Source: Alphaproteobacteria bacterium
GTDB lineage: Bacteria > Pseudomonadota > Alphaproteobacteria > Rickettsiales > UBA8987
DNA length: 64,000 nt
NCBI GenBank assembly: GCA_030429625.1
Contig: JAUIFA010000001.1
Coordinates: forward strand, 97,306 to 161,305
Reading direction: 5' to 3'
Part shown: positions 1,709-44,456 of the stretch, piece by piece
Numbering within the stretch: the first letter of the stretch is position 1
Layout of the letters: the number at the start of each line of letters is the position of its first letter
The notes under the pieces: model-generated
Databases searched by the model: none
What the model was told of the DNA's origin: nothing
The model's input: only the letters and a program-made list of their open reading frames with translations
Position numbers and translations under genes: made by a program

Positions 1709-1848
1709 CGATATACTGTAGCTATGGTATACTCAGTCACGCTATCTATATAATTTCTAGACAATTTTAAACATTTATATTATACCTTTAACCTGATATG
1801 AATTTTACTCGTGAAGAGACCCATTAAGAACTACGTGTGTTTATATAT

Positions 1849-4683
1849 ATGAAGAAATTATTTATTTTTGCTTTTACAGCTGCCCTATTTTTATTGTCTT
1901 ATAAACCAGCCTTGGCTGATTCTACCCCTGTCCCTCTGCCTCCCTTGCCCGGTTTTGCTTCTGTAGAAGAAGCACAGCAACTTTCCGAGAGTGTAGAAAA
2001 GGAAGAAAAAGCAGAGATGCCAAAACTTGAAGATCTTCCAGAATTTGCTGACGTTGAAGAAGAAAATACCTCTGAAGATTTGCCAACGCTTGAGGATTTA
2101 CCAGAATTTGATGAGGCGGGAACAGATGAGGTGGATCATGAGGGAGCAAACACCCTTGTTGAGGACGCATTAGGCGTATTAAAAAGCAGTACCATCAAGT
2201 CCGCTCATGCGGATGCTGAACCGTCAAACGACATTGATGAAGAGGTAACAACCGAATCAATATTAGAAATGGCTGACGATGTGCTTCAGGCAAGCAAAGA
2301 TTCGGTGAGAGAAAATATTTCAGAAATTGAGCAAACCGATATGTCAGATTTGTCTATTGAGATGGATATGGATGAAGAAGAGTCTGACATGGAAGGGGAA
2401 TTGCTGTCTGAGGAAATCATTCAGGCTCAGGAAGAGTTGCCCGCGCTTGAAGCTGAGATTGAGATGGCCGAAGACGATGTGCCAGTATTGCAGCTTGAAG
2501 AAAGTGTGGATACGGCGGAGCAAGACGTTGTGGCCGTGGCAGAAGAAGTGGAAGAAGAAATCCAGGACATAGTCTCCCAAGATTCAGTGGAAGAAGCTGA
2601 GGTAATGGATTTAGACATGGAAGACATGGATATTACTTCTGAAGAGCTGGAAACACAGGCATTTGAAGAATTTGATGATAAGGCAGAAGAATTTTCAGAC
2701 ATGGAAGACATGGATGAGGAGGAAGCCCTACCATCCCTAGAACAAGAGCTGGATATGGCGGAAGAGGGCGATATAGATGGTCTTGATGATATGCCAGAGG
2801 CTGAACTTGTGGAGTCAGAACCAATTTCCGATATAAACCACACGCTTGTTCAAGATATTCCCGCAGAGCTTCCAGACATGCAGGTGCCTGAGGTTGAGAG
2901 CGGTACAGACAATGCGGAAGATTTGTTTGCGCAAGAAATTTTAGATTTGCCAGAGTCTCCTGTTGAAACGGCTAAGGACATGCCAGAATCAGAAGCGCTG
3001 GAAGTAACCGTAGAAAAACAAGATATTGAAGATTTGTCCAAGGCATTTGGAGCCGATGAAAAGGAACAGGCAGAGCTTGAGGCACTGTTTGCGGAAGAGG
3101 GCTTGCCGGCTCCAGACATTAAAGAAGTAAAAGCCGCAGTTCAGGAAGAAATAGCACAGGACGATACCGATTGGGCAATTAGCAGCTGGTCTTTAAACGA
3201 ACTTTCTAGCAAGGAAAAGCGTGATCAAGACGTCGCCGAGTTAGTAAATAAACGTAAAAACGCGCTTGCCAAAGACAATGACTTCGTTGTGCCAAACTTT
3301 ATGTATAAGAGGGCATACAACAAATCAAATTCTCACCTGCCAAAGGCAATTTACCAAAGTGACCTTGATAGACAAATGGTCATGGCCGCCGCCAAAGGTG
3401 ATATGGCGGGTGTGCGCTCTCTACTTAATTCTGGCGTGTCTGTAAATTCGGTGGACAATAATGGCAACAGCGCGTTGATGCTTGCTGTGGCAAATAACCA
3501 TAAAGATCTTGTGAATCTTTTGATTCTAAGAGGAGCCGACATCAATGTGGCAAACAATGAAGGTGTGACAGCCCTGCATGTGGCTATTGATAAAAACAAG
3601 CCTTATTTTGTCAACATTCTTTTGTATAAAGGTGCGGATGTAAATGTTGCTAGTGCCAATGGTACGACGGCGCTGATGCGTGCGATTATGGCAAACAATG
3701 ATGTGGTATTTAACACATTGGTTGACAATGGTGCGAACATAAGAGCAACAACAAGGAATGACGTTACAGCATTGCACACAGCGGCGCAGCTTGGGCAGGT
3801 GCAAATGGTTGAACGGTTGCTTAAAGAAGGTGCCGTGCCAAACGCTAAAACCAAAGATGGTTTTGTCCCCGAAGAACTTGCGGTGATAAATGGGCATTCG
3901 CAAATTGCCTCCACAATTGCCCTGTTTACTGCCGAGCTTATCAAGCAGCATCAGGCAGAATTGCTCAAAGAACATAAACAAATCAAACAAGAGCGGGAAG
4001 AGTTGGCACAGGCCATGTCCATGCCGTTTGATGGGGAAAGAAGATACAATCGGCTAAACAAGGCTGAGCAACATATCTGGGATCAGCGTTTGAGAAACTG
4101 GGTTAATGTGCAAAATAATTTTGATGATTTAAATTTAGAAGATAAAATACTCTGGAACGATCGCCGGAAAAAATTACAATCTATTTACGCTCAGCAGCTT
4201 TTTGCCTCTTTAACGGAGTTAGGTGCGGATCCGATTGCTATGGTATCGCATTGGGATGAATTTGAAAAATCTCTTCCACAGATCATTGAAGAGAAAAAAC
4301 AGCGCAAAGAACAAATGCTAAAACTTATATCGGATTGGAAGGCAACAGATGCGCAGTTTGACACAATGTCTTTTGAGGAGAGGGTCGCTGCCAACACCAA
4401 GCGCATACAAATGCTTGAGAAATTGTTGGGCGGTAAAGAGTCGGGTGAATTGTCTGATGTGTTCTTCGAATTGCCCATTGAAGAGCGTGAGCAATTACGC
4501 GCTTCCATGGCCAAATGGGATGTTTTTGAACGCACCATTGATGTGGAGGATCCCGAAGCACAATTTATCTCAAAATCCGCAGGGGTAGACTCTGTGCCTT
4601 CATCGCAAGACATTGATATGGAACAAATATTGATGGATAAGCAAGATCTGATGCAGCAAGACATTGAGTTTGACCAAAAATAA
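1849..4683 (+). CDS. Secreted ankyrin-repeat protein with a long acidic N-terminal region and a coiled-coil-like C-terminus
   Basis: ORF 1837..4683. The ATG at 1849 gives MKKLFIFAFTAALFLLSYKPALA, which looks like a Sec signal. About 450 aa are D/E-rich low complexity, including LEDLPEF twice (nt 2026-2047 and 2089-2110). Five to six ANK repeats lie around nt 3376-3915 (NGNSALMLAV..GADIN, EGVTALHVAI..GADVN, NGTTALMRAI, DVTALHTAAQLG). Confidence 0.85.
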   Translation: MKKLFIFAFTAALFLLSYKPALADSTPVPLPPLPGFASVEEAQQLSESVEKEEKAEMPKLEDLPEFADVEEENTSEDLPTLEDLPEFDEAGTDEVDHEGANTLVEDALGVLKSSTIKSAHADAEPSNDIDEEVTTESILEMADDVLQASKDSVRENISEIEQTDMSDLSIEMDMDEEESDMEGELLSEEIIQAQEELPALEAEIEMAEDDVPVLQLEESVDTAEQDVVAVAEEVEEEIQDIVSQDSVEEAEVMDLDMEDMDITSEELETQAFEEFDDKAEEFSDMEDMDEEEALPSLEQELDMAEEGDIDGLDDMPEAELVESEPISDINHTLVQDIPAELPDMQVPEVESGTDNAEDLFAQEILDLPESPVETAKDMPESEALEVTVEKQDIEDLSKAFGADEKEQAELEALFAEEGLPAPDIKEVKAAVQEEIAQDDTDWAISSWSLNELSSKEKRDQDVAELVNKRKNALAKDNDFVVPNFMYKRAYNKSNSHLPKAIYQSDLDRQMVMAAAKGDMAGVRSLLNSGVSVNSVDNNGNSALMLAVANNHKDLVNLLILRGADINVANNEGVTALHVAIDKNKPYFVNILLYKGADVNVASANGTTALMRAIMANNDVVFNTLVDNGANIRATTRNDVTALHTAAQLGQVQMVERLLKEGAVPNAKTKDGFVPEELAVINGHSQIASTIALFTAELIKQHQAELLKEHKQIKQEREELAQAMSMPFDGERRYNRLNKAEQHIWDQRLRNWVNVQNNFDDLNLEDKILWNDRRKKLQSIYAQQLFASLTELGADPIAMVSHWDEFEKSLPQIIEEKKQRKEQMLKLISDWKATDAQFDTMSFEERVAANTKRIQMLEKLLGGKESGELSDVFFELPIEEREQLRASMAKWDVFERTIDVEDPEAQFISKSAGVDSVPSSQDIDMEQILMDKQDLMQQDIEFDQK

Positions 4684-7229: not shown

Positions 7230-7850
7230 TCATTTTTCCGCAGGTTTGTCTGCCGCACCGATAATAGGCTGTTTCTCAACTTTATTTTCTTCCTCCACCA
7301 CAGCCTCATTGTTTATCACAGGCATGGATTCAGGAATGGTTTCTTTTATGTTGCGGACAAATTTGATGGCCGGTTGCCACATTTTGTCTTTAATAGAGCC
7401 TACCAGATTATGCATCACGTCTTCATCGAGCTTTAATACGCGGATACCTTCGCGTTCATCAATCATATTATCGGTTGAAACACTGTGATTAATGATGGCT
7501 GGGCGTTTTTTAATGATTGGTGCGTACAAGGTTAGATTATCGTCCTCTAGCGTGTAGTAGAACATGGCTTGTGCATCTGGGCCTTTTAGAAGAAGAAATT
7601 TATAACCGTCCCATGTTAGGGTCTTCATGTCGGTTTGAGACACACGATCGCCTTTGACCGGATCAATCTGTATCAATTTATCGTCGTCACGGACAATAAG
7701 AAATTGTTCCTTGCGTACCGGCTCTTTGTACCACTGCCCAGGAAAATCACTGTCTACTTCAGCCCTGTCCCACATTGCTCCAAAATCTTCCACCAGCAAA
7801 CAGCTGCTTAAGCAGACAATAAGAACTGATAACATAGCCAATAAACGCAT
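7230..7850 (-). CDS. Hypothetical lipoprotein, translationally coupled to atpC
   Basis: MRLLAMLSVLIVCLSSC has a signal peptide and a lipobox-like LSSC. Its ATG overlaps the atpC stop (TAATG at 7848-7852). I recognise no family. Confidence 0.5.
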   Translation of the reverse strand: MRLLAMLSVLIVCLSSCLLVEDFGAMWDRAEVDSDFPGQWYKEPVRKEQFLIVRDDDKLIQIDPVKGDRVSQTDMKTLTWDGYKFLLLKGPDAQAMFYYTLEDDNLTLYAPIIKKRPAIINHSVSTDNMIDEREGIRVLKLDEDVMHNLVGSIKDKMWQPAIKFVRNIKETIPESMPVINNEAVVEEENKVEKQPIIGAADKPAEK

Positions 7851-8242
7851 TATTTACAAAGCTCCACAAGTTTTTCAATGTTTTTAATTTCTTCTTCAAA
7901 CGCTTCTTTTTCGGGCTCAGAAATTGACGCTGCAAGTTTATCCTTAGTTACGGATAACAAAGCCTTTGCTTCAGATTTTGAGAATTTATCAAGGTCAAAC
8001 GCATCGGTCGCCAAAATAGTGCAACGATCACCAGTGACTTCAGCAAAGCCACCCGTAACAAAGATTTGCCCACTGATTGTGTCTTTCTCATACAGGCTGA
8101 TAACCCCTGGACAGAGCGTTGAGATAAGGTTTGAATGCGCCTCTAAAACCCCAAATTCTCCTTCGGAACCTGGAATTACAGCCATGGTCACCTCTTCAGA
8201 AGAGACTACTTTTTCAGGTGTTACAAGATCAACTGTTAGCAT
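7850..8242 (-). CDS. atpC: F1 ATP synthase epsilon subunit
   Basis: 130 aa. Opens VDLVTPEKVVSSEEVTMAVIPGSEGEFGVL and lies directly downstream of atpD. Confidence 0.9.
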   Translation of the reverse strand: MLTVDLVTPEKVVSSEEVTMAVIPGSEGEFGVLEAHSNLISTLCPGVISLYEKDTISGQIFVTGGFAEVTGDRCTILATDAFDLDKFSKSEAKALLSVTKDKLAASISEPEKEAFEEEIKNIEKLVELCK

Positions 8243-8269
8243 GTTTTATCCTTATCCAACAACAAATGT

Positions 8270-9715
<1,446 letters not shown>

Positions 9716-9744: not shown

Positions 9745-10311
9745 TTAAAAGGATTTTGTTTCTTTCATTAATTCATTATTTGTTTTGTCTGATTCCATAA
9801 ACATTACTCTAAAATCTTCGAAATCTTTTCGAAGTATGTATAAAAAGAACCAGTAAGCAGCACCAATATTAACGCATAGAATAACTAAGAGGGCAATAAT
9901 AGGGCCTAGTCCAACGCTAATCAAAGCGCCTGCCACAAAGGTTGCTGCAAGATTGGCGGCAATGTTTCTCCATTGCCATGCCCACCATAGTCGTCTGACC
10001 CGAGAAAGCGTTAAGCCTCTGTTATCGGTTGAATCTGCTGAAATGATATAAGGCACGCCTCTTTTGGAGAAAAAGACTTTGTTAAGAAAAAACTGCTTAA
10101 AATAATAATAAGAAGCCCAAATTACACCAATCCCAGCAATGATCTCTTTATAAGCCTTTGACGTTATTGGATTGATTCCTGTAATTTTAAAAACTATTGC
10201 ACAAACAATATTTATGGCAATACCAATTAAAAGAATCCGCCAGAATATTCCCCACCAAATAGCAGTTGCCCTGATGTCCTCATGTTGTAATGATTGATTT
10301 TCAGTCATCAT
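9745..10311 (-). CDS. Four-TM membrane protein of unknown function inserted between atpG and atpD (internal two-fold repeat)
   Basis: 188 aa. Its ATG overlaps the atpG TGA (ATGA at 10308-10311). There are four hydrophobic segments. The two halves resemble each other: AIWWGIFWRILLIG...YYYFKQFFLNK versus RLWWAWQWRNIAAN...YWFFLYILRK. The gene is AT-rich relative to atpD. Confidence 0.6.
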   Translation of the reverse strand: MMTENQSLQHEDIRATAIWWGIFWRILLIGIAINIVCAIVFKITGINPITSKAYKEIIAGIGVIWASYYYFKQFFLNKVFFSKRGVPYIISADSTDNRGLTLSRVRRLWWAWQWRNIAANLAATFVAGALISVGLGPIIALLVILCVNIGAAYWFFLYILRKDFEDFRVMFMESDKTNNELMKETKSF

Positions 10312-11210
10312 ACACTCTCCGCCCCAGCAATAATTTCAATAAGCTCAGTGGTGATCGCAGCCTGACGGGAGCGGTTATACTGAAGCGTCAAATCGTTAAT
10401 CATTTCACCGGCATTGCGAGTGGCATTGTCCATCGCCGTCATCCGTGAGCCTTGTTCCGAAGCCGAATTTTCCAGAATTGCATGGAAAATTTGTACCGCA
10501 ACGTTGCGTGGCAATAATTCTTCGAGAACGGCCTCCTCTCCCGGTTCATAATCATAGGAGGACTGCACATCAGAGGCAGAATGTTCTTTATCTAAATTTC
10601 CAATTTCAAGGGGAATAAGCTGTTGAAACGTAACTTCTTGGGTCAGCGCATTGATAAATTTATTATACACGATGGAACAAGAATCAATTTCTTCCGATTG
10701 GAATAAGTCGATCACATGAACGGCCAGTTTCTCTGCATCGTCAAAGTCATAGCTGGCTCTATTGTCCGTTTTGGCTTTGTAACAGATCAGGCTTTCGTAA
10801 CCAAAACGAAGCTGCTCCAGCCCTTTCCGGCCAAAAGTAATGAGTTTTACCTTTTTGCCTTGGCTCTGTAAGGCAGCGATTTTGTGTTTGGTTGCTTTGA
10901 CAATAGAACTGTTGAAGCCACCACAAAGTCCCTTGTCCGCCGTAGCAACGATAATCAGGTGGGTTTTGTCCACAAGGTTTTGTTGTTCATCACGGTGACC
11001 AGAAAGCAGCTTGGGCGCTGTATCCACGCATATGGCAGCCGCTAGAGTTGATAGCATACGTTCCATTTTTTCCGTATAAGGGCGTGCACGTTCAGCACGT
11101 TCCTGAGCCTGGCGCAACTTACTGGCGGCAACCATCTGCATCGCCCGCGTAATTTTACGCGTGGATTTTACACTGTCGATGCGGTTCTTAAGTTCTTTTA
11201 AGTTCGACAC
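10308..11210 (-). CDS. atpG: F1 ATP synthase gamma subunit
   Basis: 300 aa. Starts MSNLKELKNRIDSVKSTRKITRAMQMVAASKLR and ends ITTELIEIIAGAESV. Confidence 0.93.
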   Translation of the reverse strand: MSNLKELKNRIDSVKSTRKITRAMQMVAASKLRQAQERAERARPYTEKMERMLSTLAAAICVDTAPKLLSGHRDEQQNLVDKTHLIIVATADKGLCGGFNSSIVKATKHKIAALQSQGKKVKLITFGRKGLEQLRFGYESLICYKAKTDNRASYDFDDAEKLAVHVIDLFQSEEIDSCSIVYNKFINALTQEVTFQQLIPLEIGNLDKEHSASDVQSSYDYEPGEEAVLEELLPRNVAVQIFHAILENSASEQGSRMTAMDNATRNAGEMINDLTLQYNRSRQAAITTELIEIIAGAESV

Positions 11211-24731: not shown

Positions 24732-25457
24732 TTACAATTGTACCGTTTTTGCTAAGGTTAGGATATAAATATTTTCCACCCCTTCTTTTTTGAGTATTTT
24801 GCTGCATTCGTTGAGCGTTGAACCGGTGGTCACTACATCGTCTACCAGTAAAACTGACGTACCAGGAATCACATCGGCATATTTGTTATTTATGGCAAAA
24901 CAGCCTTTGACATTTTCCTTGCGCTTTTTTGCGCTAAGGCTGGCTTGTGGCGGAGTATGTTTGGTTCTTTTTAACATGTCTGGTACAAATTTAGCGTTAC
25001 AGTCTTTGCTGATCTGTTTTGCCAAGAGAGCAGATTGATTGAATTTTCGTTGCAGCAATCGTTTTTTATGAATGGGGACAGGAATAATATAATCCACCTC
25101 GTCCACATTGGCTCGGTTAGCATTGACCATTAATTTTGCCAGATAAGATGCAACCAGAGTGTTGTCGCCATATTTAAATCGGGTAATAAGTTTTGAACTA
25201 TGTTCGTCATAAATAATGGCAGAGGAGGATTGGTTAAATATGGGTGGGGCGGCGGTGCATTGGGCACAAAGCGGCGAATCTTCATCAATATATTCTAGCG
25301 GAAAGGAACAGATACGGCAGGCATTAGAATTCAGAAAGCGAATATTGCCCCAGCAGACATGGCAAAGATTTCCGTAATCTTTTATGACGGTAGCACAGCC
25401 GACACAGCGTGGTGGAAAGAGAATGTCAGAGAGTATTTCTAGCGGTTTTCTTAGCAT
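24732..25457 (-). CDS. ComF-family phosphoribosyltransferase-like protein
   Basis: 241 aa. The N-terminus has a Cys-rich zinc-finger pattern (CVGC..CHVC..CRIC..CAQC). The PRT motif is VLLVDDVVTTGSTL. Confidence 0.8.
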   Translation of the reverse strand: MLRKPLEILSDILFPPRCVGCATVIKDYGNLCHVCWGNIRFLNSNACRICSFPLEYIDEDSPLCAQCTAAPPIFNQSSSAIIYDEHSSKLITRFKYGDNTLVASYLAKLMVNANRANVDEVDYIIPVPIHKKRLLQRKFNQSALLAKQISKDCNAKFVPDMLKRTKHTPPQASLSAKKRKENVKGCFAINNKYADVIPGTSVLLVDDVVTTGSTLNECSKILKKEGVENIYILTLAKTVQL

Positions 25458-26304
25458 TTTTTACAACATGGTAAGTGGCATATAAAGTGCTGATCATGAT
25501 GAAGGCGGTGCCTATAAGTGTCCATGTATCAATGATTTCATCAAACACGACATAACCGATAATAGCAATAAAAATGATACGAGTAAAATCATATGGTGTT
25601 AAAAGAGTCATGTCTGCATTGGCCACCGCATTGCCTAAAGAAATCTGTGCCACCGCCACGCTCATCCCCAACCCTAAACAAAGCGGCAAATGTTCCAATG
25701 TTGGGTTGTGCCAGCTCCATAATGCGCCGGGTAGTGTCACTGGAATGGTAAGCAACAAACTATAAAAGGCAATAAAAACAGGGTTTAGTTTTTTGGTCAT
25801 CATTTTAAGGATAGAATTGACTGTTGCCCAGATAATGGCCGAAGCCACGGCGCATAAACTGTACGCATTAAAGGCCTCAGTTCCCGGGCGCAATACCACC
25901 AGCATGCCTATGAAACCCAGCCCCAAAGCAAGCCAGCGTTTTCCATCACTGGCTTCTTTAAAAATCACAATACCGATAATTGATGCGATGATGGGCGACA
26001 TAAAGGTGATGGAGGTAGCCACCGCAATGGGAATATGTGCCAGTGCGGTATAGAACAAGGCCAAACCAATGTAACTTAAACAGGTGCGGAACAGCAAAAC
26101 CGGAAGATGTTGTTTTTGCAAAAGTGGCGGGCGGTGCTTCAACAGCCACGGAATAAAAAACGGTAAGGCAGAAATTGCACGCAGGAAATTGATCTGCAGG
26201 GCGCTGAAATCTGTGGTCAGTAAACGAGCAAAAACCGACATGATACAGATGGCCAGACAGAAAACCAACATCCACAGTATGCCAACGGTTTGGGTACTAT
26301 TCAT
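25426..26304 (-). CDS. EamA/DMT-family transporter (paralog 1 of 4)
   Basis: Ten-TM pattern. The ATG at 26304 (MNSTQTVGILWML) overlaps the upstream paralog's stop by 8 nt (ATGAATAG). The ORF-track start at 26391 is an upstream extension. Confidence 0.8.
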   Translation of the reverse strand: MNSTQTVGILWMLVFCLAICIMSVFARLLTTDFSALQINFLRAISALPFFIPWLLKHRPPLLQKQHLPVLLFRTCLSYIGLALFYTALAHIPIAVATSITFMSPIIASIIGIVIFKEASDGKRWLALGLGFIGMLVVLRPGTEAFNAYSLCAVASAIIWATVNSILKMMTKKLNPVFIAFYSLLLTIPVTLPGALWSWHNPTLEHLPLCLGLGMSVAVAQISLGNAVANADMTLLTPYDFTRIIFIAIIGYVVFDEIIDTWTLIGTAFIMISTLYATYHVVKNAKKTARNTL

Positions 26305-27202
26305 ATTGACCAACTTCTGCCGATTTTGCATGATACAGTGCGTAAAGTACGCTTGAGAGAATAATGATTCCCCCAGCAATAGTCCACACATCCACTATTT
26401 CATCAAAAAAGAAATAGGCAAAGACTGAGGTGTATATTAGGGTGGAAAAACTGATAGGAAGGACCACAGTAATGGGGGCTTTAGAAAAGGCCTTGGTTAC
26501 GGCATATTGTTGGCCAAACACAAAAACCCCCATCAACAAACATAATTTCCATTGATAGAGGGTGGGCTCAAGCCACACGTAAGTTGCCAAGGGCAATGCA
26601 AGTAAGCCGGTTAAAAACACCATATAGAACGTGATGGTGGAAGGGTTTTGGTTGGCAGTCAGCCGTTTGATTAAAATACCGCATGTGGCAAAACAACTGC
26701 AAGCAATGGCAATGAGTATGGTTGCCAAATACACATGACCCCGATTGTTTCCTGCTAGGCTAGAATCGTCTATGCCCGGGTGGATGACTGTCAGTACGCC
26801 AATAAGTCCAGCAACAAAGGCAATTTTTCGGTGGATGCTACTGTGCTCACGTAAGATAACCACTGCCGCGGTATATAAAAATAAAGGTGTCATATAAGAC
26901 AAAGCCGTGTGAATAGGTAAGGGGATAAGTGAAATAGCATAAAATGACAAAGACCAGCCCACACATTCTAAAACAGCGCGTAGCACATAGGCTTTATAGT
27001 GAGCAGTTTGTAGCACAATTTTTTTCTTCATTAAATAGGGCAAGAAAAGTGCCGTAGCAAAGACATTGCTGAAGAAAACAATTTGAAATGGATGCATATG
27101 ACTTTCGGTTAGAAAGCGGATGATAACAAAATTACATGCACCCAATAAGGTCATCACCACCATCCAGAACACACCGTGAGAGATATCGCTATAATGCTTC
27201 AT
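26297..27202 (-). CDS. EamA/DMT-family transporter (paralog 2 of 4)
   Basis: 301 aa, about 10 TM segments, similar to its neighbours. Overlaps the upstream paralog by 14 nt. Confidence 0.8.
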   Translation of the reverse strand: MKHYSDISHGVFWMVVMTLLGACNFVIIRFLTESHMHPFQIVFFSNVFATALFLPYLMKKKIVLQTAHYKAYVLRAVLECVGWSLSFYAISLIPLPIHTALSYMTPLFLYTAAVVILREHSSIHRKIAFVAGLIGVLTVIHPGIDDSSLAGNNRGHVYLATILIAIACSCFATCGILIKRLTANQNPSTITFYMVFLTGLLALPLATYVWLEPTLYQWKLCLLMGVFVFGQQYAVTKAFSKAPITVVLPISFSTLIYTSVFAYFFFDEIVDVWTIAGGIIILSSVLYALYHAKSAEVGQYE

Positions 27203-28073
27203 GCGTGCCTTTTAACCGCTTTGATTCACCGCGCATAGCAAAAACTGCTCCCACAAGAATAATGATTGAACCAATGACGGTCATCATTGTGGTTTTTTCC
27301 TCCAAGAAGATCGCACCCAAAATGACCACAAACAGTAGACGGGTAAACTGAAACGGCATCACAATCACCGCTTCGGTATATTCGTAGGCTTTAGACATGG
27401 AATATAGCGCAATATTCCAACACACCGCCACCAGAATTGCCCACAATAATTGGGTGTTGGTTGGCATCTGCCAATAGAAAAAAGCAATGGGCATGGAAAT
27501 TGCTCCCATAAACAGTTTGGTATAAAGAGAAATGGTATTGGCACTGTCCGTACGAGTGAGCATTTTGACGCTGATATGCGCCCCTCCATAAAGTGCCGCG
27601 CCGGTCAGAACAGCCAAAGATGCTGCATTAAAATGGACACTGCCAGGCTGAATGACCACTAAGGCACCGACAAATCCTATGGCTAACGCAAAGATACGAA
27701 CAAAAGTGGCTTGTTCTTTAAAACATAAAAGGGCAATGATTACCCCAAACAAAGGAGAAGTGAAAAAGATAGCCGATACGTCGGCCATGGTCATCTGGGT
27801 GAGCCCATAAACAAAAAGAATGTAAGAACTTGTCCCTGTGATGCCGCGCAGTAAATAGGTTTTCCAGCGAGTGGTTTTTGGCAAGGTAAAGCCAGAACGC
27901 TGTAGCCAAGAGGAACTCATAATCAGGGCAAATAAATGCACCATAGCACACACCATATAAGGGTTTATCCCTTCGGCAGCTTTACGTGAAGCCAGAGTAA
28001 TAATGGCCATCATAAAGCAGTGAATTACCATCCAAATGATGCCTTGCAGGCTGCTATGTAAATGTTTGATCAC
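27189..28073 (-). CDS. EamA/DMT-family transporter (paralog 3 of 4)
   Basis: 294 aa. LQGIIWMV and VMPFQFTRLLF match paralog 4 (LQAIIWMV, VMPFEFTALIF). Confidence 0.8.
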   Translation of the reverse strand: MIKHLHSSLQGIIWMVIHCFMMAIITLASRKAAEGINPYMVCAMVHLFALIMSSSWLQRSGFTLPKTTRWKTYLLRGITGTSSYILFVYGLTQMTMADVSAIFFTSPLFGVIIALLCFKEQATFVRIFALAIGFVGALVVIQPGSVHFNAASLAVLTGAALYGGAHISVKMLTRTDSANTISLYTKLFMGAISMPIAFFYWQMPTNTQLLWAILVAVCWNIALYSMSKAYEYTEAVIVMPFQFTRLLFVVILGAIFLEEKTTMMTVIGSIIILVGAVFAMRGESKRLKGTHEAL

Positions 28074-28938
28074 GACGTTTCATTTCCTTATGCAGGGCAA
28101 TAGAAGTTCCGGATAATACTATAATAGCACCTATAATAGTCCATTTATTTATAATTTCATCAAAGATAAAATAGGCCAAGAATGTAGTAAAGATCAGGGC
28201 GGTAAATTCGAACGGCATCACTACCGCAAGATCTACTTTTCTAAAGGCGTTAGCAATGGCGATGAATAAGAAGTTAGACACTTGTGCGGCAAGGATTAGC
28301 CAGAGAACATCATTAAGGCTGGGTGTTTGCCAATAATAAACCATAAAAGGAATACAAAAAAAGAACATAAACAGCCAAGTAAAGAACACGGTGGTGATAT
28401 TATCCTCGTCTACAATAATTTTTTTATAGAAGATTACCGATACGGCATAAAGGAAATTTGCGGCCAATGATGCAATGGCACCAATGTGGAAGTCATCCGT
28501 ACCGGGCCGGATGATGATCATTGCCCCGACAAATCCAATAAAGAGGGCAACAAGCTGTGTATTATTCAGTTTTTCTTTTAGAAAGATGACCGCTAGAAGG
28601 ACGGTAAATAATGGGGCAGTATAGTCAAGAGCTACGGCTTGAGTCAGCGGAATAACTGAAATACCATAGACCCATAAAAACATCGATAGCATTCCCGCAA
28701 TAGCACGGTAGTTGTGCAATTTAGCTATTTTTGTACGCGGGAAGGAAAAATGTCCTCTGTCTTTGATAACAATCCACAACAAGATAAGCACGATGGCAAA
28801 TAAATTACGCAGACTCACAATCACATAAGGATTGAGTGTTTCAGACAAATGGCGGATGATGGCGCTTAAGAGTGAAAACCAGAAACAGCTAATGACCATC
28901 CAAATAATGGCTTGTAAGTTGTTCGAGAGCTTATGCAT
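28054..28938 (-). CDS. EamA/DMT-family transporter (paralog 4 of 4)
   Basis: 294 aa, about 10 TM segments. Overlaps exoD by 8 nt and paralog 3 by 20 nt. Confidence 0.8.
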   Translation of the reverse strand: MHKLSNNLQAIIWMVISCFWFSLLSAIIRHLSETLNPYVIVSLRNLFAIVLILLWIVIKDRGHFSFPRTKIAKLHNYRAIAGMLSMFLWVYGISVIPLTQAVALDYTAPLFTVLLAVIFLKEKLNNTQLVALFIGFVGAMIIIRPGTDDFHIGAIASLAANFLYAVSVIFYKKIIVDEDNITTVFFTWLFMFFFCIPFMVYYWQTPSLNDVLWLILAAQVSNFLFIAIANAFRKVDLAVVMPFEFTALIFTTFLAYFIFDEIINKWTIIGAIIVLSGTSIALHKEMKRRDQTFT

Positions 28939-31603: not shown

Positions 31604-32020
31604 ATGATGCAAAGCTGTACCGTTACATTGTCGTTTTCTGCGGCTAAAAGATTGCCGGATTTTGATGGTAACTGCAAACATGTTCATGGCTATGGTCATA
31701 AAATAGAAGTAACCTTTGCTCCAAAAGGTTCGGATGGAGATTTGGTGGTTGATTTTTATAAGGTCAAGAATGTGCTGGGGCAATGGATAGACGGGCATTG
31801 GGATCACACGATTTTGTTGCATGAAAAGGATAAATCTTTAGGAAATTTAATCGCTCAACATACCGGTCAGACCCCCTTTTATTTTGATACGAGTCCTACG
31901 GCAGAAAACCTTGCTAAATTTTTATGCACACAGATCTGTCCAGAGTTATTGCCTCAGGTGATATGCATCAAAGTTAGAGTCTACGATAATCCGGAAGTGT
32001 GGGCGGAATTCTCTGTTTAA
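31604..32020 (+). CDS. queD: 6-carboxy-5,6,7,8-tetrahydropterin synthase
   Basis: 138 aa. FSAAKRLP..C..VHGYGHKIEVTF and DHTILL match the PTPS/QueD pattern. Confidence 0.75.
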   Translation: MMQSCTVTLSFSAAKRLPDFDGNCKHVHGYGHKIEVTFAPKGSDGDLVVDFYKVKNVLGQWIDGHWDHTILLHEKDKSLGNLIAQHTGQTPFYFDTSPTAENLAKFLCTQICPELLPQVICIKVRVYDNPEVWAEFSV

Positions 32021-32358
32021 TTAAAAGCAAACATATTTTGCATAATGTCACAAATTTCCTGAGCTTTTATTTGGTTTAAGGTAGTGACTTTATTAAGCAA
32101 ACGCTTTTTATCAATAGTGCGCATTTGATCCAACGCCAGCTGATATTGCCCGTATTCAATGTTGATAGGCACTCGAAACGGCGCAGCACGGCCAATGTGA
32201 CGTACCGGAGCAACCGTGACGGTTTTAAGCTGATTGTTTAGCTCATTGGGGGAAATGACAACGCACGGTTCAGGGCGGCGAATCTCGGTTGAATCCAGAG
32301 AAGTAACCGACACCATAAATACATCAAAACGCTCAATGGGGATAGACATATTACACAT
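32017..32358 (-). CDS. MazF/PemK-family toxin
   Basis: 113 aa. FDVFMV..EIRRPEPCVVISP..TVTVAPV and DQMRTIDKKRL fit the PemK-like pattern. The alternative ATG at 32349 overlaps the antitoxin stop. Confidence 0.75.
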   Translation of the reverse strand: MCNMSIPIERFDVFMVSVTSLDSTEIRRPEPCVVISPNELNNQLKTVTVAPVRHIGRAAPFRVPINIEYGQYQLALDQMRTIDKKRLLNKVTTLNQIKAQEICDIMQNMFAFN

Positions 32359-36810: not shown

Positions 36811-37542
36811 CTAAAAACCAGCAGGAATATCAGGCTTAAAGGGAATTGAAGGTAATTCAATAGCTGGGGCGATTTCTTTAAAGAAATCATCATTCATATT
36901 CTCAAATAAATATTCTAAATCCTTATCCCGCTTATACTGATACTTCCCATTGTCAAAGTCCATTAGTTCCGTAACCATTGCTTTCCAATCGTGGTTTAAA
37001 ACAGTATTAAAGAATCGAGGGGTCGACCTATCCCAATTGAGACTGTACTGGAGAGCAACAGAGGCAACGATTGTTTGAATGTGTGGTGACAGGTCTCCGA
37101 ACTGTTTTGCGCCCTTAGGAATGTTTGCATTGTAAATATTTTCTATGGTTTCTCCAAGATATTTAAAAAACAACTTATCTATAAGATTATATTCTGATTT
37201 TGTTAATGTAAGCGGTTCAATATAACTATATATTTGGGCCAATTGTCCTTTTTTACCTAAATAGGGCTTCAGCTTTTCTTTAATGTCTTCGGGAATGCCC
37301 ATTTTATCAAGACTGCTCTCATTATATTTACCCAAATCAAATAGATCAGCTATTACCACACCCGCATCCACGGTTAGGTTTCCAGTATAGTTATAGATAG
37401 TTACGCCCGCATACTGTCCTCTGGCTTTAATGTGTAACAATTGACTGCTTTTATCATCGGAAATGGTTTGGGCGTTAATGCTACTACTAATCAAAAAAAC
37501 CAGCAGGAATAGCAGGCTTGGAAGGGATATGTGCAATTTCAT
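36811..37542 (-). CDS. Secreted pesticin-C-terminal-like (T4-lysozyme-fold) muramidase homolog, possibly non-canonical
   Basis: Signal peptide MKLHISLPSLLFLLVFLISSSINA. GVVIADLFDLG, LKPYLGKKG, FGDLSPHIQTIVASVALQYS, TPRFF, DWKAMVTEL and KRDKDLEYL match my recollection of the pesticin-like muramidase family. There is no Glu between the signal peptide and the G-V-x-I-A motif. Confidence 0.55.
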   Translation of the reverse strand: MKLHISLPSLLFLLVFLISSSINAQTISDDKSSQLLHIKARGQYAGVTIYNYTGNLTVDAGVVIADLFDLGKYNESSLDKMGIPEDIKEKLKPYLGKKGQLAQIYSYIEPLTLTKSEYNLIDKLFFKYLGETIENIYNANIPKGAKQFGDLSPHIQTIVASVALQYSLNWDRSTPRFFNTVLNHDWKAMVTELMDFDNGKYQYKRDKDLEYLFENMNDDFFKEIAPAIELPSIPFKPDIPAGF

Positions 37543-37544
37543 TT

Positions 37545-37583
37545 TATAAATATTGTTTGTCCCTGAAGATTAGGGTAATTATT
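37545..37583. repeat. Anchor repeat, degenerate copy 1 (34/39 identical to copy 2)
   Basis: tataaatattgtttGtcccTgaAGattAgggtaattatt. It lies between the muramidase-like gene ATG (37542) and the ATG at 37588. Confidence 0.75.
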
Positions 37584-37587
37584 TTTC

Positions 37588-38073
37588 ATGCGTACAAAAG
37601 ATTTTATAAAATCATTATCATATAGTAAAATAGTATTTTTATTACTCTTTACGGCTCCTGCTGTTGCATCGGCATTTATAATACAAGAACAATTGGATGA
37701 TTCAGATTTAAACGAACGCATAATACCGTTGCTTATGCTTATTTCCTATCTATTCTTTATAATCTCAATGCTAAATTATTTTATATACAGGAAAAGCGGG
37801 AGAATATCGGCTGTTGTGCCAGTTATAATAAACTTTATTGCGATAGGCAGCTTTGGAATTATGCTCAACATGCCCGCTGTTTTCATTATTCCATTCTTAT
37901 TTGTTGCTGGAGTGTGGGAGATTTTTGAGAAGAAATTTTTAGTTGCTGCGGTTTATATTTTGTTGTTCCTTGCAACCATAACCCCTTTTGTATTTGTATG
38001 GCAGACTGGACTTGAAATGGAGAAACGTTCTGAGGGGATGAAAGACCAAGTTCAAGACCAATCAGAACACTAA
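37588..38073 (+). CDS. Multi-pass membrane protein, immunity-like candidate (paralogous N-terminus with 38288..38923)
   Basis: 161 aa with about five hydrophobic segments. MRTKDFIKSLSYSKIVFLLLF parallels MKIKDCIKSLTFSEIILYLLL in the neighbour. Degenerate anchor copy 1 lies directly upstream. Confidence 0.5.
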   Translation: MRTKDFIKSLSYSKIVFLLLFTAPAVASAFIIQEQLDDSDLNERIIPLLMLISYLFFIISMLNYFIYRKSGRISAVVPVIINFIAIGSFGIMLNMPAVFIIPFLFVAGVWEIFEKKFLVAAVYILLFLATITPFVFVWQTGLEMEKRSEGMKDQVQDQSEH

Positions 38074-38278
38074 TTGCATCGTCTTTCTCACCTTTTATTT
38101 TCTTCCACATGCCCCCATTTAAAGTTTCTGATATTATACCAACAAACGCAACACCTGCATTTACAAGACTCAACCATTCATAGGTAAAACCACAGGCTAA
38201 ACCTACAAACCCATAATGTATGTTGCCCCAAATATCGGTGTTATATAAATATTGTTTATCCCCGAGTATTGGGGTAAT
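38042..38278 (-). pseudogene. Start-less orphan cassette encoding the C-terminal half of the toxin domain
   Basis: My reverse-strand translation is ITPILGDKQYLYNTDIWGNIHYGFVGLACGFTYEWLSLVNAG...KDDAISVLIGLELGL. It aligns to residues 186-~275 of the 327-aa protein. There is no in-frame ATG/GTG/TTG before 38173 and no internal stop. Confidence 0.6.
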
Positions 38279-38279
38279 T
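38243..38279. repeat. Anchor repeat copy 2 (exact 37-mer)
   Basis: atataaatattgtttatccccgagtattggggtaatt is identical to 39296-39332. It heads the orphan cassette on the minus strand and ends 8 nt before the ATG at 38288 on the plus strand. Confidence 0.9.
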
Positions 38280-38287
38280 ATTGTGTT

Positions 38288-38923
38288 ATGAAGATAAAAG
38301 ATTGTATAAAATCATTAACTTTTTCTGAGATAATTCTCTATCTGCTGTTAGCTACTATACTGCCACTATTAGAATGGAACGGAGTTTCATTTGTAAGTAT
38401 TATCGTGACAATATTGGTACTAATATACACTATCATATTTGCCCCAATATATTTTATAACATACGTGTGGAGGAAAAAGTTCAAGGCATTACTTCCTTTG
38501 TTTAAAGGAATTCTAATGCTTCTTTACATGTTGTCGGTTGTTGCCACTGTGTACCGGCACTATGAAGAGAAAGTTTTTAACGAAAAATATAATGATTATA
38601 TGGAAGTGGTAAATATATTTAAATCAGGATCATGGCCATATGAAGTGATTGAAACTACTGCCGAAGAAAAATCTAGGGGGCATTATGATAAGTATGTTTT
38701 GCCTACTAAATACCATCATCTAGCAAAACCTTACTGGGTTAATAATCCTAAAAGAAAACTGCATGTTATTGAAGGTAATATAGCGAATCCAAATAGTGAA
38801 ATAGAGTTTTCTGTTGAATCTCATTACGATGAAGCATGGGTGGTTTATACTCCTATTAAAGGGTGTGGTATATATCAACCATGCAAAAAAGACCACTGGT
38901 ACTTATTGCACACTCCTAGATAG
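38288..38923 (+). CDS. Membrane protein (3-4 TM segments plus a ~110-aa soluble C-terminal domain), immunity-like candidate
   Basis: The ATG at 38288 gives MKIKDCIKSL. The ORF-track TTG start at 38252 lies inside the 37-nt anchor. The 3' end overlaps the convergent toxin gene by 21 nt. Confidence 0.5.
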   Translation: MKIKDCIKSLTFSEIILYLLLATILPLLEWNGVSFVSIIVTILVLIYTIIFAPIYFITYVWRKKFKALLPLFKGILMLLYMLSVVATVYRHYEEKVFNEKYNDYMEVVNIFKSGSWPYEVIETTAEEKSRGHYDKYVLPTKYHHLAKPYWVNNPKRKLHVIEGNIANPNSEIEFSVESHYDEAWVVYTPIKGCGIYQPCKKDHWYLLHTPR

Positions 38924-39886
38924 CAATTTTGCGATATTTGAACTTTTGACCTTTAAGTTTTGAGGGCGTAATTTTACAGACCCAGCACTCCATAATGCTC
39001 TGGTGGTGTATATCGCTATATGTAATGCTTGCTTTGATAGTGAATTGCTATTTTGCTCCCATAGACCAATTCCTGCTAATACACTAATTTCATCATCTTT
39101 TGCAGCAATGGCATGCCCTTTCACTTTACCAAATATATTGCCAAAATCTATCTCTCCCTTATAAAGATCTGCAGCTATGCCAATACCTGAACTAACAATC
39201 TCTACCGCAGTATTACCTAGAAGTAAGAATTCTTTTGTAAACCCACAAGCCAGCCCAACATAACCAAAATGAATATTTGACCAAATGTCATAATAATATA
39301 AATATTGTTTATCCCCGAGTATTGGGGTAATTGGTACAAAATCTCCATTCTTTTTCCATGCAGGAATAAACAATGCTTTAAATTTATCATTCTTCTTATG
39401 ATCCCACTTGCCTCCAGACTTAACTAATTCTATAAACTTTAGATTTGCCTGTGTAAAATAAGATAGAGACTCTGCTTCTAACAGTGCTCGTCTTTTATAA
39501 TCAATCTCACCTATAGATTTTATTATCAAATTGTCAGATTGAGCATTCAATTCCCTTATTTCCTGTGCTTCGGGGCCATTAGCATTTTTGTTCATTTCTG
39601 CGGTCATAAAATTTAGGACACGATCGTATGCGTCGTAATTAAACAGATATTCGTGTTTTAACTCTTCATTTTCATTCACGGTTTTTGCCTGATTATTAGA
39701 TAGGCGTTCTTTTCTTATGGGGTTAAGAAAATCGGCAAAAAGATTGCGATTGCCTTCAAGCGATGCCTGTTTTTTCTCAGGCGTGATCTCAGGGAAAAGA
39801 TGCGCCACTTGTTCGAAAGCAAAGGCAAGAGATTCTTGCGCCAGCCCGATTGTTATGGGTCTAATGATTTCATTTGGTTTTGGCAT
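38903..39886 (-). CDS. Polymorphic-toxin-like protein: unknown N-terminal ~160 aa plus a C-terminal Ntox44-like (polymorphic toxin type 44) domain
   Basis: 327 aa. GGKWDHKKN...DIWSNIHFGYVGLACGF...AKDDEISVLAGIGLW resembles my recollection of the type-44 toxin pattern (WDxK, NIH[FY]G[FY]VG, DD). No signal peptide is present. The ATG lies 2 nt after the tail-tube gene stop. Confidence 0.5.
   Translation of the reverse strand: MPKPNEIIRPITIGLAQESLAFAFEQVAHLFPEITPEKKQASLEGNRNLFADFLNPIRKERLSNNQAKTVNENEELKHEYLFNYDAYDRVLNFMTAEMNKNANGPEAQEIRELNAQSDNLIIKSIGEIDYKRRALLEAESLSYFTQANLKFIELVKSGGKWDHKKNDKFKALFIPAWKKNGDFVPITPILGDKQYLYYYDIWSNIHFGYVGLACGFTKEFLLLGNTAVEIVSSGIGIAADLYKGEIDFGNIFGKVKGHAIAAKDDEISVLAGIGLWEQNSNSLSKQALHIAIYTTRALWSAGSVKLRPQNLKVKSSNIAKLLSRSVQ
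39296..39332. repeat. Anchor repeat copy 3 (exact 37-mer) inside the 327-aa toxin-like gene
   Basis: On the minus strand it encodes ITPILGDKQYLY, residues 186-197 of the 327-aa protein. Confidence 0.9.
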
Positions 39887-39888
39887 GA

Positions 39889-40302
39889 TTATGCCTCCGT
39901 GTAGAGGATTTCGCCGCTACTTTCGAGAGAAATACTGTAGCTTTCAGCATTCTTAATGGCGCCGGAGCGATTATAATCCATCACCTTAAATGTACCAGAG
40001 AGCACGTCACCGCTACCAAAGTGAATCTCAAAACTTGTCAATTTATTGGTGAATGCGGCAATACGTAATTGGTTTTCAGTCGTTGATCCCATATACCTGC
40101 CGCTGGCATCAATGGTGATAGAGCGTTGTCCCTCATTATCAATGATATCACGCCATTGACCAGACAAAATGTTAGTTGAATCAATTATTTTTGTACTAAA
40201 ACTAAAATCCATGTTTAGTAATCCGCCGACCAGAGAGAAACTCTCCGGATCGCCACCATCGCCAATATGTAATGTTACCTCAGAACCTTTTTGTGCCGCC
40301 AT
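39889..40302 (-). CDS. Phage/GTA major tail (tube) protein homolog, TP901-1 family, solitary
   Basis: 137 aa. The pattern MAAQKGSEV...GGL...WRDII...ASGRYMG...F...G.F.V..Y...G...AESYSISLESSG and the length match my recollection of the RcGTA g9-type tube protein. Confidence 0.65.
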   Translation of the reverse strand: MAAQKGSEVTLHIGDGGDPESFSLVGGLLNMDFSFSTKIIDSTNILSGQWRDIIDNEGQRSITIDASGRYMGSTTENQLRIAAFTNKLTSFEIHFGSGDVLSGTFKVMDYNRSGAIKNAESYSISLESSGEILYTEA

Positions 40303-44379: not shown

Positions 44380-44456
44380 GGGCGGTTAGCTCAGCTGGCT
44401 AGAGCATCTGGTTTACACCCAGAGGGTCGGGGGTTCGAATCCCTCACCGCCCACCA
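44380..44456 (+). tRNA. tRNA-Val (anticodon TAC), CCA encoded
   Basis: I folded the cloverleaf by hand. Acceptor GGGCGGT/ACCGCCC, D arm GCTC..GAGC, anticodon stem TCTGG/CCAGA with loop TTTACAC, T arm GGGGG-TTCGAAT-CCCTC. Total length 77 nt. Confidence 0.93.

Follow-up and report, generated by a model that had tools for sequence, protein, structure and literature searches.

The window analysed here is a 64,000-nt stretch of the alphaproteobacterial contig JAUIFA010000001.1 (assembly GCA_030429625.1, positions 97,306 to 161,305 of the forward strand). The system under study is a locus at 36.8-40.3 kb of the window in which a predicted polymorphic-toxin gene, a start-less fragment encoding an alternative end for the same toxin and two convergent membrane-protein genes are arranged around copies of a short repeat, termed the anchor (Table 1).

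Toxin gene, orphan half-domain and anchor repeat

The 327-aa toxin matches Ntox44 (PF15607) at 61.4 bits, where the Pfam gathering cut-off is 24, and this match bears out the initial annotation of the gene as a polymorphic toxin. No other Pfam family and no NCBIfam or PHROGs family is matched, and the protein contains no hydrophobic segment. Ntox44 has been described as an all-alpha polymorphic-toxin domain with the motifs DxK, GNxxxG and DxxxD and no listed immunity family (Zhang et al. 2012, PMC3482391). Residues 1-84 of the toxin form a lineage-specific N-terminal extension, residues 85-185 form the N-terminal half of Ntox44 (N-half), in which the DxK motif reads W-D162-H-K164, and residues 198-327 form a variable C-terminal half (C-half), designated CT1, that contains the GNxxxG motif region and a hypervariable stretch. 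The intervening residues 186-197 are encoded by the anchor.

A second C-half, CT2, lies downstream on the same strand. Its frame is open for 130 codons from 38278, anchor included, to the stop at 37886; ahead of its anchor the frame is closed by two stops at a distance of 11-12 codons, and no ATG, GTG or TTG occurs in the frame before 38173. For these reasons CT2 is both intact and start-less, as first proposed, and its own Ntox44 match (37.9 bits) agrees with the earlier description of it as an alternative C-terminal half. Every invariant residue of the family alignment is kept in CT2, and at its 35% GC a 130-codon open reading frame (ORF) would stay open by chance with a probability of ~5e-5, as estimated from base composition. 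The GNxxxG motif is exact in CT2 (GNIHYG) and reads SNIHFG in CT1, while of DxxxD only the DD pair is kept (KDDEIS, KDDAIS), the second D having become S.

The two C-halves are each preceded by the same 37-mer, which on the minus strand reads as one base plus 12 codons for ITPILGDKQYLY. The pair was correctly reported as exact, 1053 bp apart and with one copy inside the 327-aa gene, and its edges are sharp, since the flanking bases mismatch at once on either side (G/A on one flank, A/T on the other). Allowing up to three mismatches, the window holds only these two copies, and no copy was found in 100 shuffles. In an independent Logan assembly of read set ERR3428548, contigs L085 and L103 break inside anchor copies 1 and 2, as would be expected of an exact repeat longer than the assembler k-mer, which in Logan is 31. 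These breaks confirm the repeat and carry no information on recombinants.

A third, degenerate copy shares 34 of 39 positions with copy 2 (86% identity over 42 nt by repeat search), and in the anchor frame it reads ITLIFRDKQYL-stop, with no cassette behind it. The initial annotation had noted that this copy abuts the start of a muramidase-like gene. The match and the 3-nt distance to the ATG (37542) of the 243-aa Pesticin/phage-lysozyme gene (PF16754) both stand; the position beside this gene is incidental, because the third copy is explained as the outer flank of the imm2 module described below. A 6-bp hairpin can be drawn on the plus strand of the anchor (CCCCGA-GTA-TTGGGG), with a compensatory form in copy 3 (CCCTGA-AGA-TTAGGG), followed by a T-rich tail; its stability shows no excess over shuffled sequence (z -0.4 to -1.5).

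Where does the anchor fall within the toxin fold? In the family alignment it lies between WDHK (DxK) and DIW[SG]NIHxG (GNxxxG), so the earlier placement of the handle inside the toxin domain was right, and a cassette joined at this point therefore replaces just the rear half of one domain. An AlphaFold2 model of the toxin is partly confident (predicted local distance difference test score, pLDDT, 58.8) and renders residues 187-196 as a low-confidence beta-hairpin between confidently predicted helical parts; a Foldseek search of the Protein Data Bank with this model gave no match below E 0.37. An exhaustive HMMER search of 1.84 billion representative proteins recovered 467 relatives, among which a small stand-alone subfamily shares the anchor peptide [VI][TS]PIxGDxxYLY together with the C-terminal tail, and the anchor-equivalent linker is variable in the wider family.

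Codon alignment of the toxin with CT2 reproduced all nine synonymous differences listed in the initial annotation, and in total 30 of the 47 identical degenerate codons outside the anchor have changed synonymously, against none of the 12 inside it. The proportion of synonymous differences (pS) is 0.00 over codons 1-12, 0.93 over codons 13-45 and 0.72 overall. From these codon counts we calculate the chance of a clean anchor as ~0.36^12 = 5e-6. Since saturated synonymous sites stand beside identical anchors, the common ancestor of the anchors must be far younger than that of the cassettes.

The initial annotation omitted two plus-strand genes, imm1 and imm2, that converge on the two C-halves. 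We regard imm1 as the presumed cognate immunity gene of CT1 and imm2 as the presumed immunity gene of CT2. Along the plus strand the array reads A3-[imm2> <CT2-A2]-[imm1> <CT1-A1]-<toxin N-part, where A1 to A3 are the anchor copies. The homology between copies 2 and 3 extends ~50 nt into the imm genes, and the first 15 codons of imm2 are homologous to those of imm1; beyond these codons imm2 shows no likeness to imm1. Neither form of imm1 (211 aa from ATG, 223 aa from TTG) is present in a collection of 15 billion proteins, in which its neighbours are found, and the gene may be unannotated in the public record.

On the other side of the toxin gene lies a tail-tube gene of the phage or gene transfer agent (GTA) type, whose stop is separated from the toxin ATG by 2 nt, and on account of this gap the two genes are probably co-transcribed. 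The neighbour belongs to Phage_tail_2 (PF06199) and not to Hcp (PF05638), and no type VI secretion system (T6SS) gene was found among the window ORFs scanned. Compared with its homologue in the related locus L083, described below, the tail-tube protein has a ratio of nonsynonymous to synonymous substitution rates (dN/dS) of ~0.07, with dS saturated; by this measure the gene is under strong purifying selection. In normal clusters (L090, L091) the tail tube is followed by tail assembly chaperones and a tape measure, and the scanned ORFs of the 64-kb window yielded no other phage gene.

Table 1 Features of the toxin locus (positions in the window)
Feature	Coordinates	Strand	Description
Lysozyme-like gene	36811..37542	-	243-aa secreted Pesticin/T4-lysozyme-like protein with signal peptide; PF16754, E 1.5e-25
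Anchor copy 3 (A3), degenerate	37545..37583	-	Plus-strand end 4 nt before imm2 ATG; array end marker
imm2	37588..38073	+	161 aa, polytopic membrane protein; convergent with CT2, 188-nt overlap
CT2	37886..38242	-	Start-less orphan Ntox44 C-half; PF15607 profile positions 39-101 only, E 2.5e-9
Anchor copy 2 (A2)	38243..38279	-	Head of silent cassette; plus-strand end 8 nt before imm1 ATG
imm1	38288..38923	+	211 aa, ~3 hydrophobic segments and soluble C-terminal domain; convergent with CT1, 21-nt overlap
Toxin gene	38903..39886	-	327-aa Ntox44 toxin; PF15607 at residues 150-276, E 1.2e-16
Anchor copy 1 (A1)	39296..39332	-	Final 37 nt of the toxin gene's constant part, encodes ITPILGDKQYLY
Tail-tube gene	39889..40302	-	137-aa phage/GTA-type major tail (tail tube) protein; PF06199 Phage_tail_2, E 1.8e-21; PHROG 1407 major tail protein

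C-half exchange in related loci

One related locus, L083/L084, was found in ENA and JGI metagenomes. Its gene order is a tail-completion gene, a tail-tube gene (68% identical) and a 310-aa Ntox44 toxin (53 bits), and the recurrence of the tail-tube/toxin pair was noted at 677-1501 of L083. The toxin N-terminus is common to the two loci, as the best 12-codon windows of residues 1-113 match at 10-11 of 12 positions and the proportion of nonsynonymous differences (pN) over these residues is 0.26. After residue 218 L083 carries a third type of C-half, with pN 0.49 against the window. The anchor peptide is identical at 10 of 12 positions, 11 of its 36 bases differ, pS is 0.77 and thus saturated as elsewhere, and L083 has no second anchor. 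The initial annotation had invoked either nucleotide-level conservation of the anchor or recent gene conversion; recent identity within the genome stands, and conservation across species does not, because the diverged bases of L083 indicate that the exact anchor DNA is not a cross-species conserved site.

Behind the L083 toxin there lie a convergent 118-aa membrane-protein gene, a ~30-codon stub with 86% amino acid identity to the end of the window's CT1, a 167-aa imm1 homologue (59% identity, E 3e-47) that adjoins this CT1-type stub and is equally convergent, a 96-nt stub of L083's own C-half (90%), and a convergent paralogue of the membrane-protein gene. In this way convergent membrane-protein genes alternate over 2432-3867 of L083 with ~30-codon toxin 3' stubs of both the CT1 type and the locus's own type; imm2 resembles none of the L083 membrane proteins. 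From its sequence, the L083 array reads as a textbook case of displaced effectors with retained orphan immunity genes. The comparison therefore indicates that CT1-imm1 is a conserved convergent module, that lineages have exchanged C-halves while keeping an N-part in common, and that orphan toxin parts are lost to decay as the genes beside them survive. The suggestion of cassette exchange in this toxin family is thus borne out by a locus that pairs the same N-terminus with another C-half and leaves a CT1 stub beside an imm1 homologue.

Exchange inside the domain is also apparent further afield. Among 80 genomic loci surveyed for Ntox44, several Pseudomonas arrays have a second copy or an orphan, and intradomain handles and mosaics recur in them independently. 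At L067 the main gene has in common with the orphan an 80-nt exact run that stops at WDHKPKL, within Ntox44, and gives way to 60-76% identity; the L069 orphan starts at WDHK with stops upstream; and at L074 and L009 the nucleotide identity is 80-90% in the N-half and 55-65% in the C-half. The shared segments vary from 80 nt to 323 nt to the whole N-half. Mosaic toxins were noted at L009, L029, L031, L037, L063, L066, L067, L069, L070, L074 and L078. Ungapped nucleotide mapping of breakpoints at the DIW motif was confounded by linker indels and was set aside.

The half-domains were further compared among 60 toxins, in which some pairs have N-half and C-half identities of 0.92 and 0.52 and others show the reverse. 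The downstream gene of the Pseudomonas loci encodes a 130-140-aa single-anchor membrane protein without a family name, and identity of this immunity protein tracks the C-half (ordinary least squares, 0.68 × C + 0.22 × N). Immunity identity is 0.40 in mosaic pairs that combine N 0.92 with C 0.52, and 0.68-0.71 in pairs with N 0.48 and C 0.81. At the level of sequence, these comparisons show that chimeras split inside Ntox44 persist in nature and that the Pseudomonas C-half and its immunity gene behave as one unit of inheritance, though physical linkage alone could be the source of the covariation.

Viral contigs yielded distant Ntox44 genes only, with same-strand lipoprotein neighbours. On IMG/VR contig L097, a stand-alone 259-aa Ntox44 gene is followed by a gene for a 181-aa putative lipoprotein (7698-9004). 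Contigs of this type are large and carry a viral label, and here too the presumed immunity protein would be located in the envelope.

A probable displacement array and the alternatives to it

How did an exact repeat come to join two cassettes that are otherwise so diverged? We consider it probable that the locus is an Ntox44 C-terminal-displacement array in which each anchor marks the retained end of the constant region and recent recombination has made the two copies identical. The constant part would comprise the tail-tube-linked N-terminus and the DxK-bearing N-half and would end in the 37-nt anchor, where it would be joined to the variable CT1 with the convergent imm1 next. Behind this a second, older module would consist of CT2 and imm2, and CT2, which is silent because it has no start codon, would retain only the final 37 nt of the constant region. 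Identity of the anchors may have come from the event that placed CT1-imm1 ahead of CT2 or from later gene conversion. The identical tract can reach no further than 37 nt, one flank being non-homologous and the other just ~60% identical, and the anchor would be the sole stretch long enough for RecA-dependent recombination or replication slippage. Recombination at the anchor would join CT2 in frame to the expressed N-half, with loss of the 1053-bp CT1-imm1 module, and the predicted 77-mer at the fusion junction (N-half, anchor, CT2) is AAGAATGGAGATTTTGTACC + AATTACCCCAATACTCGGGGATAAACAATATTTATAT + AACACCGATATTTGGGGCAA. For cassette replacement, a distal homology arm could be supplied by the 5' ends of the convergent imm genes, which are conserved. 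We infer that switching at the anchor may take place in the present day.

A silent half-domain cassette array is in itself an ordinary, known kind of locus. In the Rhs main/orphan pair of Salmonella Typhimurium (STM0291/STM0292), the account of Koskiniemi et al. (2014, PMC3967940) describes an orphan fragment without initiation or export signals that yields an expressed fusion by recombination at a shared stretch, a prior duplication being proposed. The same account gives a layout like that proposed for the window locus, with a toxin gene and its immunity gene followed by an alternative toxin-end fragment with its own immunity gene. Its handle is unlike the anchor: it is situated in the Rhs core, before the toxin domain begins, and covers 522 bp at 95% identity (PMC3967940), whereas the anchor is 37 bp, exact and intradomain. 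No Rhs, PAAR or T6SS part is present at the window locus. Immunity genes of typical Rhs loci lie on the toxin strand, unlike the convergent genes of the window.

Class 3 MafB of Neisseria is a small globular secreted toxin accompanied by start-less C-terminal cassettes, each followed by a mafI gene, and the mafB-CT cassettes begin with a conserved box coding for a DWVKN motif that could allow recombination; genome comparison shows that what one strain carries as a cassette can be the expressed end in a different strain (Jamet et al. 2015, PMC4287609). By our reading of that paper (PMC4287609), the box lies ahead of the toxin domain and not inside it. The window locus resembles MafB in its start-less cassette with a presumed immunity gene and, as with CT1 in the window and in L083, in the swap between cassette and expressed end, and it differs in toxin family. 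The mafI genes are said to lie on the same strand as the toxin.

In Vibrio cholerae T6SS arrays, new modules displace old ones and leave orphan immunity genes with effector 3' stubs (Kirchberger et al. 2017, PMC5361080). The L083 pattern is exactly this displacement pattern; in the window, by contrast, the displaced part remains a full half-domain that is in frame and has an exact handle, instead of a stub, and there is no T6SS context. The Pseudomonas arrays (compared at L009, L066, L067, L069, L070, L074 and L078) share with the window the Ntox44 domain and the downstream copies or orphans, some of which start inside Ntox44 near WDHK. They differ in that at least some of the proteins are longer, with PAAR-like sequence just upstream of the domain at L078, in that their immunity genes are same-strand, of the single-anchor type given above and unrelated to imm1 and imm2, and in that their breakpoint falls at or before DxK whereas that of the window falls after it. 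What is unusual about the window locus, then, is the intradomain handle, the convergent presumed immunity genes with starts abutting the anchors, and the pairing with a phage-type tail tube.

One alternative hypothesis is a plain tandem duplication in decay, in which CT2 is a dying pseudogene, the 37-nt identity is inconsequential and the immunity genes alone matter. The L083 toxin parts that have shrunk to ~30-codon 3' stubs beside intact membrane-protein genes would suit such a history, as would the stop codon of copy 3 with no cassette behind it, and orphan immunity arrays with effector stubs are common (PMC5361080). However, the long open frame of CT2 and its full set of invariant family residues speak against decay, and an ancient duplication cannot give an anchor pS of 0.00 beside 0.93, so a recent exchange would still be required; we therefore judge this explanation unlikely. 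A somewhat less likely alternative is that the anchor is no recombination handle and instead acts in cis on imm1 and imm2 as a promoter, 5'-UTR, ribosome-binding region or small hairpin terminator. The imm1 and imm2 starts lie 8 and 4 nt beyond copies 2 and 3, with homology running on into the genes, the hairpin with its T-rich tail was flagged as terminator-like and is altered in a compensatory manner in copy 3 (CCCC/GGGG to CCCT/AGGG), and copy 3 is 87% conserved though no longer toxin-coding. Yet copy 1 is identical to copy 2 while only the antisense of the toxin N-terminus lies to its right on the plus strand, the hairpin is no more stable than shuffles, and the promoter and terminator scans stay at or close to chance (15 promoter-like matches against 14 expected). 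Moreover, the region upstream of the imm1 homologue in L083 has no resemblance to the anchor, and the anchor codons of L083 form no hairpin.

More doubtful still is the possibility that the anchors are att-like core sites at which a site-specific recombinase encoded elsewhere, integron-like or Xer-dependent, inserted the CT-imm cassettes. Exact, sharp-edged direct repeats around a 1053-bp module would be expected of such sites, the junction between anchor and imm 5' end is present twice, the anchor holds a short imperfect palindrome, and the adjacent lysozyme cassette also lies within a 34-49-nt direct repeat. This is countered by the scans of ORFs in the 64-kb window and by the gene table of L085, in which no gene for an integrase, transposase or other recombinase was found, by the lack of conservation of the anchor DNA in L083, which has no second anchor, and by the Pseudomonas shared segments, which differ in length and position as homologous recombination predicts.

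Several observations weigh against the displacement array with a recombining anchor. Neither imm1 nor imm2 belongs to a Pfam, NCBIfam or PHROG family, and a profile of the Pseudomonas Ntox44-linked immunity proteins misses imm1, imm2 and the L083 membrane proteins alike. Among the window ORFs that were scanned, none was found to encode a domain for secretion or trafficking or part of such an apparatus. Searches of the metagenome and viral collections recovered no copy of the anchor, a scan of metagenomes with a protein pattern gave no match, the genome has no entry in the species-representative collection, the proteins of this genome that were looked up are singletons at 90% identity, and the evidence base consists of consensus assemblies. 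A stretch of 37 bp is near the minimum for RecA-mediated exchange and far below the 522-bp Rhs handle, so switching would be rare. Finally, a plain deletion at the anchor would take imm1 with it, so that the recombinant would become sensitive to the CT1 of its siblings, and for this reason a prior duplication is perhaps needed, as proposed for Rhs.

A more speculative proposal, which we would put forward only tentatively and regard as rather unlikely, is that the tail-tube homologue and the toxin form an undescribed delivery pair, with the siphophage/GTA-type tube acting as carrier or chaperone like Hcp or loading the toxin into a GTA-like particle. Separately, it envisages the Ntox44 N-half as fixed and catalytic and the C-half, seen by immunity, as swapped at an intradomain hinge, with the imm 5' ends as distal arm.

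Polymorphic toxins are usually described as swapping whole domains at an upstream boundary; at the window locus the exchange point is intradomain, and the neighbouring immunity gene appears to travel with the C-half. If the chimeras are active, Ntox44 would be a case of natural split-domain modularity in which catalytic residues come from both halves and immunity specificity from one, and the array would offer a practical guide to mapping the immunity-binding surface of the family. The conserved pairing with the tail tube would then suggest a delivery route for a toxin without a recognisable export signal.

Neighbouring genes and other features of the window

With 36% GC, the stretch from 36.8 to 40.3 kb forms a low-GC island in a window of 43% GC; yrdC and lon border it on one side, and a GNAT gene, proS and lolCDE do so on the other. 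By its Lon protein, the host belongs to the uncultured alphaproteobacteria. In the nearest Lon relatives (74% identity) the genes upstream of lon are tig-clpP-clpX and the island is missing, and named relatives at 66-68% identity are mostly from Rhodospirillales and unclassified alphaproteobacterial metagenome-assembled genomes; because the loci of the nearest Lon relatives are without the island, synteny gives no comparison.

The lysozyme-like gene next to anchor copy 3 encodes an N-terminal hydrophobic segment. The body of the gene lies between the copies of a 34-49-nt direct repeat (36813-36861 and 37495-37543). The 5' and 3' ends of the gene are 85% alike over 34 nt, and from this end homology it follows that a short direct repeat brackets the lysozyme cassette, too. 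The signal peptide LPSLLFLLVFL is encoded by the 5' copy, while the 3' copy is read in another frame and supplies the C-terminus IPFKPDIPAGF-stop; in the frame of anchor copy 3, the 5' copy reads IPSKPAIPAGFFD-stop.

Elsewhere in the window, an Rfam scan returned a single match, a tRNA-Val at 44380. A 948-aa protein with multiple ankyrin repeats is encoded at 1837-4683 on the plus strand and may hint at a host-associated lifestyle. On the minus strand, a 188-aa ORF without a Pfam match (9745-10311) lies between the genes for ATP synthase gamma (10308-11210), which it overlaps by 4 nt, and beta (8270-9712). Four EamA-family transporter paralogues stand in tandem at 25426-28938, also on the minus strand, and near them, at 32017-32358, is a MazF/PemK toxin gene.

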